Below, piece by piece: positions 5,119 to 31,135 of a DNA stretch of 47,277 nucleotides. Position numbers and translations under genes: made by a program. This DNA comes from an uncultured Bacilli bacterium (GTDB taxonomy: Bacteria; Bacillota_I; Bacilli_A; RF39; UBA660): NCBI GenBank assembly GCA_944372215.1, contig CALVYL010000003.1, forward strand, positions 1 to 47,277. The letters run 5' to 3'. Positions within the stretch are counted from its first letter, which is position 1. Every line of letters starts with the position of its first letter. Under the pieces are notes generated by a model. It was given only the letters and a program-made list of their open reading frames with translations. It made no database searches and was not told where the DNA came from.

Positions 5119-5135
5119 TTCGACAAAATTCGACA
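5119..5135 (-). promoter_or_regulatory. Tandem Spo0A boxes upstream of the csp promoter
   Basis: Minus strand TGTCGAA-TTT-TGTCGAA, then TTGCAA-17-TAAAGT with a TG extension. Confidence 0.6.
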
Positions 5136-14876: not shown

Positions 14877-15329
14877 CTATAAATTACTTTCATCTTCGGC
14901 ATCATCAATTACAACAAAGTCTGATAAGTCATCATCATCTACTACATCATCAGTTTCATCGTCTTTATCGTAGAAAATATCTTCATCTTCGGCTTCGGCT
15001 TCGATTTCATTTTCTTCGGCAATTTCATCTTCAATTAAATCTTCATCATCATCTTCTTCATCTTCAATGACAATATCTAGTTTGTGTTTAGATTGTAAAT
15101 CCCAATAACCATTTTTAAGCATAATAAATTTTTTATTAATACTCATAAGTTCAAAGAAATCTACTAATCTTTCATCGACGATTTCTTCTGGTAATTCTAA
15201 AACCTCACATACTTTTTTAAATATGTCGCGTAATTTCATTTTTTTACCAGTTTCTTGTAAAACTAAGGCTGCGATATCGTCATAACCCATTAATTCTAAT
15301 TCTTCTTTTGGTATCTCACTTAATTTCAT
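14877..15329 (-). CDS. rpoE: RNA polymerase delta subunit
   Basis: HARE-HTH-like N-domain ending NGYWDL plus a long acidic tail; next to argS. Confidence 0.85.
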   Translation of the reverse strand: MKLSEIPKEELELMGYDDIAALVLQETGKKMKLRDIFKKVCEVLELPEEIVDERLVDFFELMSINKKFIMLKNGYWDLQSKHKLDIVIEDEEDDDEDLIEDEIAEENEIEAEAEDEDIFYDKDDETDDVVDDDDLSDFVVIDDAEDESNL

Positions 15330-15340
15330 AAACACTCTCC

Positions 15341-16950: not shown

Positions 16951-17283
16951 TTATCCTTTCAATACAATTTTAATTATTTTTTCATCATCATCTAGTTTAT
17001 ATCTTAATTTAATTAACTTGGGAGTTATTGCCAATTCAGATTCAATATCCAAACTACAATGTTCTCCAGTATCGAATGTAAATGAACAAATATTTTTATT
17101 AAAATCTATTTCCATATTATAATCTTTCGCATTTCTTTTATACATTTTGTTTTTAAAATCTATAAGATTTACTACACCATCTTCTAAGAATTTTAAATAC
17201 TCATTCTCAGCATATTCACAAAAAGCATTTTCTAAATTAATTATTTCTTTATCGTTGCTTGTTAATGTCCAATCTATTTTCAA
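16951..17283 (-). CDS. Hypothetical protein, possible YwiB/DUF1934-like
   Basis: 110-aa beta-rich ORF with TTG start and GAGGTG SD, immediately upstream of argS (ywiB position). Confidence 0.5.
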   Translation of the reverse strand: MKIDWTLTSNDKEIINLENAFCEYAENEYLKFLEDGVVNLIDFKNKMYKRNAKDYNMEIDFNKNICSFTFDTGEHCSLDIESELAITPKLIKLRYKLDDDEKIIKIVLKG

Positions 17284-17400
17284 TAATAAGCACCTCGCTT
17301 TTTTTCTAAAACATTATAGCATATGCTGTTATTATCCGCAATAAAAAGTTATAAAAGTTCAATAAAAATTTAACTAAAAATAAAAATCATTTAAAACTTT

Positions 17401-17449
17401 TGTCGAACCATGTCGAACCTATTGCAAATAAAAAGATAACAGTTATAAT
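17401..17449 (+). promoter_or_regulatory. Tandem Spo0A boxes plus sigmaA-like promoter, copy 1
   Basis: TGTCGAA (17401) CCA TGTCGAA (17411); TTGCAA 17422, 16-bp spacer, TATAAT 17444. Confidence 0.7.
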
Positions 17450-17550
17450 ATATAAACGTTACCTGGATTGGTGCAACGTCGACAATTTTCTTTTCCTCCT
17501 CAAGGGGGTCAATCGATTCTTAAGAGAGTTCTTGGACTAGGAGGTTGCTT

Positions 17551-17640
17551 ATGAGTGAAAATTTATTTTTTCAACTCGTGATAATCATCGTTATTATCAT
17601 TTTTGGTAGTAACAATGACAAAGACGCCACTAGAAAGTAG
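17551..17640 (+). CDS. 29-aa hydrophobic peptide, candidate type I toxin (copy 1)
   Basis: AGGAGGT SD; MSENLFFQLVIIIVIIIFGSNNDKDATRK*. Confidence 0.75.
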   Translation: MSENLFFQLVIIIVIIIFGSNNDKDATRK

Positions 17641-17684
17641 CGTCATCCAAACAATGGCGTTACCCAATACAGGTAACACTTACA
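17612..17684 (-). ncRNA. Putative antisense (antitoxin) RNA, copy 1; ends approximate
   Basis: Minus-strand TTGTAA (17718-13), 17-bp spacer, TGcTATATT; hairpin GACGCTACT-TTCT-AGTGGCGTC followed by TTTGT. Confidence 0.5.
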
Positions 17685-17765
17685 TTTATAATATAGCAAA
17701 TTTTACATTTTATTACAACATAAAACTAGTGTTTTGCTTATAATTTAACAAATTTTTAAAACTTT

Positions 17766-17814
17766 TGTCGAACCTTGTCGAAACTATTGCCAATAAAAAG
17801 ATAACGGTTATAAT
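17766..17814 (+). promoter_or_regulatory. Tandem Spo0A boxes plus sigmaA-like promoter, copy 2
   Basis: TGTCGAA (17766) CCT TGTCGAA (17776); TTGCCA 17787, 16-bp spacer, TATAAT 17809. Confidence 0.7.
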
Positions 17815-17917
17815 AGATAAACGTTACCTATATTGGTGCAGCGCCGACAGCTTTTTAGCCAAAGGCTCGAAGGGGGTCTGATGATTCTTAAGAGAGTTCT
17901 AGGTTAAGGAGGTGCTT

Positions 17918-18007
17918 ATGAGTGAAAAATTATTTTTTCAACTCGTGATAATCATTGTTATTATCATTTTTGGTAGTAACAATGACAAAGACGCCACTAG
18001 AAAGTAG
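17918..18007 (+). CDS. 29-aa hydrophobic peptide, candidate type I toxin (copy 2)
   Basis: TAAGGAGGTG SD; MSEKLFFQLVIIIVIIIFGSNNDKDATRK*. Confidence 0.75.
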   Translation: MSEKLFFQLVIIIVIIIFGSNNDKDATRK

Positions 18008-18051
18008 CGCCTAAAAAAACCAGGCGTTACCCAATACGGGTAACACTTACA
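17979..18051 (-). ncRNA. Putative antisense (antitoxin) RNA, copy 2; ends approximate
   Basis: Minus-strand TTGTAA (18085-80), 17-bp spacer, TGgTATATT; boxes conserved while the spacer diverges from copy 1. Confidence 0.5.
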
Positions 18052-18140
18052 TTTATAATATACCAAAAACTAAAATAAATTACAACTATTTATCTATATT
18101 TTCTAAAAAGTAGGACATAATAACCTTTAGGTGATATAAA

Positions 18141-20105
18141 TTGAAAAAGGTTCGTTTTCTATTTAAATTAATGCTTTTTGGATTTATATCTTTTATGGTA
18201 ATAATTATTGGATTATATACTTATGCTTATTTAAGTCCAAAATTAGATATTAAAACTAGTGGCAGTTTATATTTGTATGATAATAATAATGAACTTGTGT
18301 ATCAGGGTTCAAGAAATAATGAATGGGCAAATTTAGAAGATATAAGTGATTATTTAATAGATGCAACAATTGCTGTTGAAGATAAAAATTTTTATAAGCA
18401 TAATGGTTTTGATTATTTAAGAATTATTAAAGCTATGTATTTAAATATTAAAAGCGGGACAATAGTACAGGGAGCATCAACTATTTCTCAACAATATATT
18501 AAAAATTTATATTTAGATTTTGATCAAACTTGGGAAAGAAAAATTGAGGAAGCTTTTTTAACTTTAGAACTAGAGGTACATTATGAAAAAGATGAAATAC
18601 TTGAAGGTTATCTTAATACCATAAATTATGGGCAAGGAAATATGGGTATTGTTAGTGCTGCAGAATATTATTTTAATAAAAAGCCTAGTGAACTTACACT
18701 TGAAGAATCTATAATACTTGCAGGTATTTCTAAAAATCCAGCGAGATATAATCCTGTAAGTGATTATGATGCTTGTATAGCTAGAGCTAAAGTTGTTGCT
18801 AAGTCTATGCTAAATAATGAATACATTAATGAAGAAACTTATAATAGTTTATTTCAAAAGAAAATAGAAATTTATGGACAAAATAAAAGTAATAATTTAC
18901 AAATGCTTATGTATTTTCAGGATGCAGTTATGGATGAACTATCTAGCATTTCCGAAATACCAGAATCTTTAGTCAATGCCGGAGGCTTAAAAATTTATAC
19001 AACATTAGATATGGATATGCAAACTAATTTAGAAGAAAATATTTTGGAAAATCGTCCAGATAATGAAATTCAAGTGGCTAGTGTCGTGGTTGATCCAAAC
19101 ACTGGAGCAATTAGAGCCTTAACTGGTGGTATGGATTATGCAAAAAGTCAGTATAATAGGGCTACTGAAAGTAAAAGACAAGTTGGTTCCACAATGAAAC
19201 CTTTCCTTTATTATGCAGCCTTAGAAAATAATATGACTATGTCATCAACATTTTCCAGTGAACCAACAACATTTACTTTAGCAAACGGTCAAACCTATTC
19301 CCCACAAAATGCTGATGAATTATATGCTAACAAAGAAATTACTATGGCTGCGGCATTAGCTTTATCTGATAATGTTTATGCTGTAAAAACCAACTTATTT
19401 TTGGGAGTTGATAAAATGATTGAAATAGCTCATAGAACGGGAATAGAAGCTAATTTAGATGAGGTAACCTCTCTACCTTTAGGAACAAGCGAAATCAATT
19501 TACTAGACTTTGCTACCGGTTATACAACTTTTGCTACTGGTGGATATAAAAAAGACTTATATTTCATCGAAAAAGTTGAAGATTTGGAAGGTAATGTATT
19601 ATATGAACATAAACAAGAAAAAAAATTGGTGTTAAATCCCAATTATACTTACATATTAAATGAAATGATGAATACAACTAGTAATGATGCTTTCGTCGAT
19701 TATACAACACCAACAGCGTTAACTATAGCATCACAATTTACCAATAAATATGCTATTAAAACCGGTTCAACCAATACTGATTTTTGGATTGTTGGTTATA
19801 ATAAAGATGCTTTAGTTATGACTTGGATGGGATATGATGACAATCAAAATATTACCTCAAAAGTGCGCACTAATTCTAAAAAAGCTTGGGTTAAAACGAT
19901 TGAATATGCTTTAAAAGATATCGATACATCTTGGTATGAAACCCCAGAAAATGTTGTAGCTATTCCTCTTGATGCTATAACTGGAACAGTTACAACTGAT
20001 AACAATAAAGTTGCTTTATATTATTATGTTAAAGGTAGTGAACCAAGCATATTAAACGAACAATATGTTTCAAGTGAAAGCGGCAACGAAAAAAATACCG
20101 AATAG
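18141..20105 (+). CDS. Class A penicillin-binding protein (PbpG/PBP2d-like)
   Basis: GT51 motifs EDKNFYKHNG, GASTISQQ, RKIEE; transpeptidase motifs STMK, SDN, KTG. Confidence 0.93.
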   Translation: MKKVRFLFKLMLFGFISFMVIIIGLYTYAYLSPKLDIKTSGSLYLYDNNNELVYQGSRNNEWANLEDISDYLIDATIAVEDKNFYKHNGFDYLRIIKAMYLNIKSGTIVQGASTISQQYIKNLYLDFDQTWERKIEEAFLTLELEVHYEKDEILEGYLNTINYGQGNMGIVSAAEYYFNKKPSELTLEESIILAGISKNPARYNPVSDYDACIARAKVVAKSMLNNEYINEETYNSLFQKKIEIYGQNKSNNLQMLMYFQDAVMDELSSISEIPESLVNAGGLKIYTTLDMDMQTNLEENILENRPDNEIQVASVVVDPNTGAIRALTGGMDYAKSQYNRATESKRQVGSTMKPFLYYAALENNMTMSSTFSSEPTTFTLANGQTYSPQNADELYANKEITMAAALALSDNVYAVKTNLFLGVDKMIEIAHRTGIEANLDEVTSLPLGTSEINLLDFATGYTTFATGGYKKDLYFIEKVEDLEGNVLYEHKQEKKLVLNPNYTYILNEMMNTTSNDAFVDYTTPTALTIASQFTNKYAIKTGSTNTDFWIVGYNKDALVMTWMGYDDNQNITSKVRTNSKKAWVKTIEYALKDIDTSWYETPENVVAIPLDAITGTVTTDNNKVALYYYVKGSEPSILNEQYVSSESGNEKNTE

Positions 20106-30904: not shown

Positions 30905-31135
30905 CAGCAGTTATCAACAAAATTTTGTGGATTTGTGGATAAAATGTTAATAACTTAGATAATTTATCCACATAATTAACAACAAATAATCAACAATGGG
31001 TGTTGATAATATGTTAATAAGTTACTGTTAATTATTTGTTTATGGGGATTTTGTGGATAAGTGCAAATTTTGTCGATTTTTGTCGATAAAAATCACTTTA
31101 ATATTTTGTGGATAATTAATAAGTTATCAAAAGTT
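30905..31135. other. oriC, upstream DnaA-box cluster
   Basis: Perfect TTATCCACA/TGTGGATAA at 30934, 30964, 31052, 31107; TTATCAACA variants at 30911 and 31001; gene orientation flips here. Confidence 0.92.

Follow-up and report, generated by a model that had tools for sequence, protein, structure and literature searches.

A predicted family of type I toxin–antitoxin-like modules with Spo0A-type boxes in uncultured Bacilli

Known type I systems and the module described here

In the type I toxin–antitoxin systems bsrG/SR4, txpA/RatA, bsrE/SR5 and yonT/SR6 of B. subtilis, the gene of a small hydrophobic peptide converges with that of an antisense RNA, the two RNAs pair at their 3' ends and the Shine-Dalgarno (SD) sequence of the toxin mRNA is partly sequestered. 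Such systems easily escape detection, since their genes are tiny and go unannotated. Here we analyse a stretch of 47,277 nt from an uncultured Bacilli bacterium (GTDB lineage RF39; UBA660; contig CALVYL010000003.1 of assembly GCA_944372215.1), hereafter called the window, in which two head-to-tail units of about 366 bp are predicted to share these features. Comparison with related copies makes it probable, in our judgement, that each unit is a type I toxin–antitoxin-like module of a previously undescribed family, with a Spo0A-boxed sense promoter, a locked mRNA and an antisense RNA.

The toxins and antitoxins of the B. subtilis systems are longer and lie on prophage-like elements. In contrast, the module is predicted to encode peptides of 23–29 amino acids and, across the family, antisense RNAs of about 65–85 nt; its copies sit between core genes, number up to about 12 per genome and carry Spo0A boxes at the toxin promoter, and they have no sequence or model similarity to the B. 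subtilis loci. PMC6562991 describes cleavage of the duplex by RNase III for all four systems and, for bsrG, contacts of the antitoxin loops with a loop and the main helix of the mRNA. The genome to which the window belongs also encodes RNase III.

An mRNA made inert by long-distance pairing of its 5' and 3' ends together with SD sequestration, as predicted for the module, is found in hok/Sok of plasmid R1 and aapA1/IsoA1 of Helicobacter pylori, and the combination applies to hok and aapA1 specifically. In both of these systems the antisense RNA targets the 5' or leader region and trimming of the 3' end activates the mRNA, whereas in the module the antisense RNA lies across the 3' end, and its target bases are also the pairing partners of the mRNA 5' end. 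Searches of Rfam, Pfam and NCBIfam found neither Hok nor Sok. Among the key determinants of type I toxin mRNAs, PMC8594479 counts SD/anti-SD pairs, terminal stem-loops and long-distance interactions between the 5' and 3' ends.

Like the module, fst/RNAII (the par locus of Enterococcus plasmid pAD1) is a Firmicutes system whose peptide of about 30 amino acids has a hydrophobic core and ends in a charged tail, and its two convergent genes are transcribed across a hairpin that they share. The direct repeats of par give pairing of RNA I and RNA II at their 5' ends, whereas the module repeats are inverted and lead to intramolecular pairing. The Fst toxin models of Pfam and NCBIfam did not match the peptides. 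Rfam gave no match above the gathering score in the window region and only a tRNA in ten loci with diverse copies; its sole hint was fstAT (RF01797) on the minus strand at 17947–18034, and with 19.8 bits against a gathering score of 72 (E = 1.1) the module is not a member of that family.

Several diverged chromosomal copies, some of them in tandem, are also a feature of ldr/rdl and ibs/sib in E. coli, which differ from the module in the position of the antisense RNA, belong to another phylum and have no homology to it. Tandem repeats and hydrophobicity have been used as search criteria for type I loci (PMC8594479). The toxin genes tisB, dinQ and symE, which PMC6562991 places under SOS control, resemble the module in having the operator of a global regulator of stress or development at the toxin promoter and not at the antitoxin promoter; that operator is a LexA box in their case and a predicted Spo0A box in ours. 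Our literature searches, passages of two reviews included, found no description of a type I system with Spo0A boxes. By analogy, the module resembles the 3'-overlapping Bacillus type I systems combined with a hok-like or aapA1-like end-to-end lock of the mRNA, and it is a member of none of these families. An earlier reading of the window from its letters alone (the original prediction) had called the family one that it did not recognise, and this holds: we found no match to any curated toxin or antitoxin family.

Two tandem units in an intergenic gap

The two units occupy window positions 17381–18110 and lie in an 858-bp gap between a minus-strand open reading frame (ORF) of 110 amino acids (16951–17283) and the gene of a class A penicillin-binding protein (PBP; 18141–20105). 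The original prediction had described the gap as holding two tandem copies of about 365 bp, each with a sigmaA-like promoter, a leader of about 95 nt, a strong SD, a 29-residue peptide and a convergent minus-strand promoter, and we recovered all of these elements in both copies (Table 1). A repeat finder identified three collinear blocks, 17546–17719/17913–18086 (89% identical), 17381–17489/17746–17854 (86%) and 17502–17545/17870–17913 (82%), with a spacing of 365–368 nt. Pairwise alignment of copy 1 with copy 2 gave a mean column identity of 89% and bore out the claim that the boxes of the minus-strand promoter are kept while its spacer has diverged. In both copies the SD (AGGAGG or AAGGAGG) sits 6 nt before the ATG. 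The region contains 17 promoter-like sites, compared with 6.3 ± 2.8 in shuffled sequences, and 9 terminator-like sites, compared with 0.4 ± 0.7. The two-copy pattern stands far above chance, because the module recurs at least 11 times in the genome and is also present in relatives.

The peptide reading frame is conserved across diverged copies

We collected copies of the module with nhmmer (111 hits), of which 79 were near full length and 70 of these distinct. Conservation of the ORF in homologous loci had been singled out by the original prediction as a check, and the ORF is kept: an SD followed by an ORF of 18–50 amino acids lies at the homologous place in 55 of the 70 distinct copies, the lengths found being 22–39 amino acids. 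Under a stricter filter demanding an uninterrupted hydrophobic run of at least 9 residues, 46 of the 70 pass. Identity among 22 peptide variants falls to 23–57%, and all variants follow a common plan in which the initial Met is followed by three or four polar or acidic residues, a hydrophobic core of about 15 residues and a Lys/Arg-rich tail.

For a substitution test we used 40 of 48 distinct ORFs, dropping those outside 23–29 amino acids and three aberrant-frame types, and compared the 71 pairs that were of equal length and at most 35% different. The ratio pN/pS was 0.41 in frame and 0.71 and 1.11 in the other two frames, with 254, 147 and 378 differences at codon positions 1, 2 and 3, respectively. 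This contrast is a signal and not a test statistic, because the ORF pairs are not independent. It points to purifying selection on the peptide ORF across diverged copies.

Searches of Pfam and NCBIfam with 11 peptide variants returned no family above cut-off, the best being weak transmembrane look-alikes far below it. A profile of the 22 variants, run against 1.84 billion proteins, gave 12 hits at E ≤ 0.001, all of them longer, mis-called versions of the same ORF in which either the leader had been read as coding or, after loss of the stop, the frame extended across the antisense promoter region. Six peptide variants were looked up as exact strings in a collection of 15 billion proteins, and none was present. 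The genuine 23–29-residue ORFs of the family are unannotated in public gene calls.

By the criteria used, 15 of the 70 distinct copies have no ORF; some are frameshifted, and in a copy on another contig of the window's genome (C7) the frame is broken by a stop at codon 5. In 8 of these 15 the antisense -10/start motif is nonetheless exactly preserved. Copies that have lost the peptide but kept the RNA gene are consistent with a toxin–antitoxin pair and, equally, with an RNA that is the more constrained partner.

A predicted antisense RNA gene opposite the end of the ORF

The best-conserved block across the 70 copies consists of the minus-strand -10 element, the start region and the first hairpin of the predicted antisense RNA. 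Our antisense alignment holds 22 of 27 representatives, one copy for which no locus was available and four with long terminator insertions having been left out. In these 22 diverse copies the first 16 aligned columns are near-identical, with 14 of them invariant (the exceptions are columns 2 and 17), and the predicted RNA runs from a 5' hairpin through a second hairpin into a T-run. In most subfamilies the T-run has 6–8 T; the ORF ends in A-rich Lys codons, and the T-run is their complementary sequence. The sequence of the terminator stem varies between subfamilies with its pairing kept, and both sides have changed in 4 of 6 pairs. Over the whole structure 96.4% of cells are paired, compared with 91.3% in shuffles (0 of 500 reach the observed value) and 31–55% when the partners are slid.

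The original prediction had noticed a 9-bp hairpin over the stop codon on the antisense strand and a change in copy 2 that gives a G-U pair on that strand only. The hairpin has 9 pairs in copy 1 and 10 in copy 2, and the single G-U pair generalises to the family: read on the antisense strand, the copies show 53 G-U cells and 4 A-C cells. Because of this excess, the local hairpins fit the minus-strand RNA better than the sense RNA. The predicted antisense RNA of copy 1 folds with a minimum free energy (MFE) of -26.8 kcal/mol (z = -4.2) and overlaps the last nine or so codons, the stop codon and the 3' untranslated region of the sense RNA. By comparison of the copies, we take the antisense gene to be real, as a gene prediction.

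The sense mRNA is predicted to lock its own start site

The window mRNAs, taken from the predicted start to just past the 3' hairpin, have an MFE of -78.4 kcal/mol (copy 1) and -87.3 kcal/mol (copy 2), with z scores of -7.8 and -8.0, respectively; none of 200 shuffles folds as well. In both predicted folds the SD is paired with an upstream U-rich stretch, the AUG lies inside a hairpin and nucleotides 3 to 25, approximately, pair with the 3' untranslated end, at the very bases that are complementary to the antisense 5' hairpin. Since both pair with the same 3' bases, the mRNA and the antisense RNA begin with nearly the same sequence.

The sense alignment comprises 20 of the 27 representatives, without the copy for which no locus was available and six with broken ORFs or long insertions. 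RNAalifold recovered both the long-range 5'-3' helix and the stop-codon hairpin from it. Pairing extends to 93.5% of cells in the resulting structure, compared with 83.9% in shuffles (0 of 500 attain the observed value) and 32–48% for slid partners, and 16 of 25 pairs show compensatory changes. The long-range helix alone accounts for 17 pairs (columns 5–28 with 268–290), nine of which have compensatory changes, and 91–97% of its cells are paired. Read on the sense strand it contains 43 G-U cells and 9 A-C cells, an excess that points to the sense RNA, and not a DNA inverted repeat, as the object of selection. Of 23 ORF-bearing representatives, 22 have the helix in their single-sequence MFE fold, and in a copy from a second genus both strands of an otherwise invariant part of it have changed together (GTTATC with GGATAAC).

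Across the 23 representatives the mean pairing probability is 0.74 for the SD, 0.63 for the AUG and 0.61 for all bases. In the subfamily of the window the SD reaches 0.98–0.99 (0.99 in copy 1), so that sequestration of the SD is predicted to be strong in this subfamily and only moderate elsewhere. When the antisense target was blocked in silico, SD pairing went from 0.74 to 0.77 and pairing of the first 12 nt of the mRNA from 0.69 to 0.52. An SR4-like tightening of the SD by the antisense RNA was accordingly rejected, the SD being hardly altered by the block, and this favours control by decay over control of translation.

A riboswitch in the leader was rejected as well, there being no Rfam match at E up to 10. 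The leader does contain a GGGGG(T) run (about 17504–17509 in the window; alignment columns 70–75) that is conserved in nearly all subfamilies, often beside a CCUCC-like stretch, and it may be part of an alternative anti-SD/SD-mimic switch.

Spo0A-type boxes mark the sense promoter

Immediately upstream of each sense -35 element in the window stand two perfect copies, 10 bp apart, of TGTCGAA, which according to PMC3485338 forms the 7-bp core of Spo0A binding sites in both Bacillus and Clostridioides. We surveyed 65 distinct upstream regions. All 65 contain at least one box at no more than one mismatch and 50 contain two; perfect boxes number two in 17 regions, one in 39 and none in 9. Their offsets are fixed, at either 11 and 21 or 16 and 26 nt before the -35, and their total of 115 compares with 2.8 in shuffles (shuffle maximum 7). 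Beyond the antisense -35, any box was found in only 16 of 56 regions, and many of these belong to the next tandem unit.

The window's genome encodes Spo0A, SpoIVA and SpoIIGA above Pfam cut-offs, and both spo0A itself and spoIIGA are preceded by boxes of the same kind. From the distribution of the boxes we infer differential control, in which the sense promoter would respond to phosphorylated Spo0A (Spo0A~P) and the antisense promoter would not. The boxes lie at about -39 to -55, where sites are more typical of activation, although the sense promoter itself is near-consensus.

Boxes of this type were also seen away from the module. A double box (TGTCGAT twice, 10 bp apart) lies at 31071–31087 of the window, about 115 nt upstream of dnaA (31203), and adjoins the replication origin region, with dnaA, dnaN, gyrB and gyrA following; in B. 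subtilis, Spo0A is known to bind near oriC. At 5119–5135 of the minus strand, two perfect TGTCGAA and then a TTGCAA promoter precede the gene of a cold-shock-type protein of about 70 amino acids. Box-plus-promoter regions without a peptide precede other genes on contigs C6 (about 2019–2180), C13 (about 15458), C24 (about 7093) and C17 (about 8995). In the C6 case the leader of a gene for a 351-residue membrane protein contains a hairpin made by the 5' end of the module with a complementary segment, GGGTAAC; this looks like a module remnant reused as promoter and leader.

The module is multicopy and restricted in its distribution

The assembly that contains the window (1.01 Mb, 27.6% G+C, 68 contigs, 73.5% complete) holds at least 11 module copies by BLAST and nhmmer, namely the two in the window and nine others, on contigs C37 (two), C7, C36, C17, C4, C18, C12 and C2, the C2 copy having lost its 5' end. 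A DNA query made from a single copy had matches in 20 of 24 other genomes of the genus; outside the genus 1 of 16 genomes gave a match, which was weak and 38 nt long. An exact 24-mer of the conserved block occurs in 64 stretches of a 185,579-species genome collection. All are from metagenome-assembled genomes, labelled uncultured Bacilli or Tenericutes, uncultured bacterium or Candidatus Onthocola, with a single exception labelled uncultured Muribaculaceae.

We built a covariance model, R1, from the antisense part of the module. It matches 38 of 56 genomes of the genus (25 of the 34 high-quality ones), with up to 12 matches in genomes of about 1.2 Mb and 11 in the window's genome; copy 1 is matched at 17596–17687 with 82.7 bits. 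In an even sample of the order, R1 matches were found in 7 of 101 genomes and 3 of 67 genera. The copy from the second genus shows the same full architecture.

Two close relatives, whose PBP N-termini are 95–97% identical to that of the window, have the module upstream of the PBP gene. In three more distant species (PBP 76–78% identical) nhmmer detected no module there, and in two of the three the gap between the flanking reading frames is only about 40–110 nt. No target-site duplication was obvious at the one filled/empty site compared. Genomic neighbours of the copies are unrelated core genes, such as those for trigger factor, a peptide-chain release factor, acetate kinase, ThiI, a P-type ATPase and ParB. 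A mobile-element origin was rejected on these grounds: the exact 24-mer does not occur in viral contigs, copy 1 has no BLAST match in phage and plasmid records, and the neighbours are core genes.

Two of the copies, one on C37 and one on C4, are each directly flanked by a protein of about 145 amino acids with two HTH_3 (XRE-type) domains (1311–1745 of locus L106 and 1267–1695 of locus L109, respectively), which may be chance or an association.

Proposed mechanism and points that weigh against it

These observations suggest the following mechanism. A sigmaA promoter behind two Spo0A boxes would make an mRNA of about 230 nt for a membrane-type peptide of 26–29 amino acids. This mRNA would be locked, its SD and AUG being base-paired and its first 25 or so nucleotides paired with its own 3' untranslated end. 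The convergent promoter, which has no such boxes, would make an antisense RNA of about 65–85 nt, composed of a 5' hairpin and an intrinsic terminator. Its complementarity to the mRNA would be complete and span about 70 nt, from the last codons through the stop codon to the 3' end. Pairing of the two RNAs would begin at the complementary terminator loop and the single-stranded spacer; the antisense RNA would then invade the long-range helix and free the mRNA 5' end, and RNase III would cut the duplex, leaving little or no peptide. At the onset of sporulation, phosphorylated Spo0A would shift the ratio of sense to antisense RNA. For the activation of a locked toxin mRNA there is precedent in the processing of one of its ends.

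That the unit is a functional peptide/antisense-RNA module we hold with high confidence. Sequence comparison shows the ORF, both promoters and the antisense terminator, together with the structures of both RNAs, the boxes and a distribution that is multicopy and confined to the lineage. The type I architecture put forward by the original prediction is thereby backed by purifying selection on the ORF, by the antisense promoter with its covarying terminator and by the structured sense mRNA. That the peptide is a toxin neutralised by the antisense RNA we consider likely, with appreciable room for doubt; its toxicity, the pairing of the RNAs in vivo, the dependence on RNase III and whether Spo0A activates or represses are what we infer from the architecture. 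Probably, then, the module represents a type I toxin–antitoxin family wired to sporulation. A bolder version, which we consider unlikely, would have Spo0A~P switch on as many as a dozen type I toxin genes. Their mRNAs would lock themselves through a 5' end that mimics the 5' end of the antitoxin and occupies the site that the antitoxin targets, and the peptides would act at sporulation onset. In this uncultured gut lineage with its reduced genome, they might make the mother cell or its non-sporulating siblings permeable or lyse them, or they might enforce commitment.

Several points weigh against a toxin–antitoxin reading. A hydrophobic core of about 15 residues is short for a membrane span. 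The in silico block predicts no translational effect of the antisense RNA. We saw no convincing terminator for the sense RNA. In the subfamily of the window, a weak T-run (TTTGTCATT) leaves it uncertain where the antisense RNA ends. The copies sit between ordinary core genes and not on recognisable mobile elements, and control by Spo0A fits a non-toxic sporulation peptide equally well. Public expression data speak neither for nor against transcription. Five public RNA runs hold small shares of the region's words (0.04–0.13, assembled contigs only), and the four that were compared yielded a few short contigs of relatives at depth 2–5, without start, end or strand information. One metatranscriptomic contig of 151 nt and depth 2 covers 17540–17677 with 6 differences, its strand and ends being unreadable and carry-over of DNA being possible.

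Alternative explanations

The closest competitor is a small membrane protein for sporulation or stationary phase that is controlled by Spo0A, non-toxic at native levels and fine-tuned or silenced during growth by its cis-antisense RNA. The original prediction had named a sporulation peptide as its alternative; the link to sporulation, through the conserved Spo0A boxes at the sense promoter, has passed into the reading that we prefer, and the two differ in whether the peptide is harmful. Conserved double boxes at the sense promoter only, the core sporulation genes of the organism, the location of the copies in core chromosomal intergenic regions and a peptide without similarity to any curated toxin family all suit a harmless protein. 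Up to 12 R1 matches in a genome of about 1.2 Mb, the diverged subfamilies, the tandem arrays and the frequent decay of the ORF are, however, what type I toxin loci typically show and would be unusual in a developmental protein, and the presence of the module at the same locus varies between species. Moreover, three predicted layers of silencing (SD pairing, the 5'-3' helix and the antisense RNA) suggest a harmful product. We regard a harmless sporulation protein as unlikely, while giving it more weight than the explanations that follow.

The conservation of the minus strand could also mean that its RNA is the main product, as one of a set of multicopy "sibling" small RNAs acting in trans, with the sense transcript mainly a sponge or regulator and the ORF secondary. 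Such an explanation would account for the antisense promoter and 5' hairpin being the most conserved part of the module, for the near-identity of the first 16 antisense columns in 22 diverse copies and for the survival of the antisense motif in 8 of the 15 ORF-less copies. Yet purifying selection appears specific to the ORF frame, the SD and start codon are conserved, and much of the invariance is accounted for by the promoter and by pairing with the sense 5' end; no trans target came to light, though no search aimed at one was made. We consider the small-RNA explanation improbable. A non-coding dispersed repeat, such as a miniature inverted-repeat transposable element with incidental promoter-like boxes, would likewise be multicopy, dispersed, some 330–370 bp long and furnished with internal inverted repeats, and it would fill a site in some species and leave it empty in others. 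Here, however, the inverted repeats are internal and not terminal, both promoters lie outside them, no target-site duplication is evident at the filled/empty site compared, the copies occur in tandem arrays, the ORF carries a coding signal and the mismatches in the repeats are mostly G-U on the transcribed strand, as counted in the sense helix. We consider such a repeat very improbable.

If the bolder, sporulation-coupled version is right, the module would be the first among type I toxin families to be tied directly to the master regulator of sporulation. A battery of toxin-like peptides stands under predicted Spo0A control in uncultured gut Bacilli with small genomes, and this, if confirmed, would link RNA-controlled toxins to sporulation decisions. 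Spo0A boxes on a toxin promoter and an mRNA 5' end that mimics the antitoxin 5' end would both be notable if confirmed. The family comprises dozens of diverged natural copies with compensatory changes and so forms a large data set, with internal controls, for how a toxin mRNA is kept silent, and the conserved promoter together with R1 offers a handle for annotating module loci in metagenomes.

Feature coordinates and flanking genes

Table 1. Positions of the predicted elements of both module copies in the window
Feature	Position	Strand	Remarks
Copy 1 Spo0A-type boxes, two perfect TGTCGAA	17401–17407 and 17411–17417	+	End 4 nt upstream of the -35; positions conserved in the family
Copy 1 sense promoter, TTGCAA-16-TATAAT	17422–17449	+	10 of 12 matches; predicted start about 17455–17457; conserved across the 70 distinct copies
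Copy 1 leader, about 95 nt	17456–17550	+	5' strand of long-range helix at 17458–17480; U-rich anti-SD at about 17483–17491; SD AGGAGG at 17539–17544
Copy 1 peptide ORF, 29 amino acids	17551–17640	+	Acidic/polar N-terminus, hydrophobic core of about 15 residues, basic tail
Copy 1 predicted antisense RNA, about 73 nt	17612–17684	-	5' hairpin 17679–17657, spacer, terminator-like hairpin 17644–17623 over the stop codon, then TTTGTCATT
Copy 1 long-range helix of the sense RNA, 3' strand	17656–17677	+	Same bases are the target of the antisense 5' hairpin
Copy 1 antisense promoter, TTGTAA-17-TGnTATATT	17690–17718	-	In the most conserved block of the module
Copy 2 Spo0A-type boxes, two perfect	17766–17772 and 17776–17782	+	From the sequence and the family positions
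Copy 2 sense promoter, TTGCCA-16-TATAAT	17787–17814	+	11 of 12 matches
Copy 2 leader	17821–17917	+	5' strand of long-range helix; paired SD AAGGAGG at 17906–17912
Copy 2 peptide ORF, 29 amino acids	17918–18007	+	N4K relative to copy 1 (one residue different)
Copy 2 predicted antisense RNA region	17963–18054	-	5' hairpin 18046–18024; terminator-like hairpin 18012–17989; R1 match of 87 bits
Copy 2 antisense promoter, TTGTAA-17-TGnTATATT	18057–18085	-	From the promoter scan

Two further minus-strand ORFs of the window, the 110-residue ORF at the edge of the gap, which adjoins argS, and an ORF of 152 amino acids with an acidic tail (14877–15335), had no Pfam match at E ≤ 1e-5. Judging by position and composition, the former presumably resembles DUF1934/YwiB and the latter the delta subunit of RNA polymerase.

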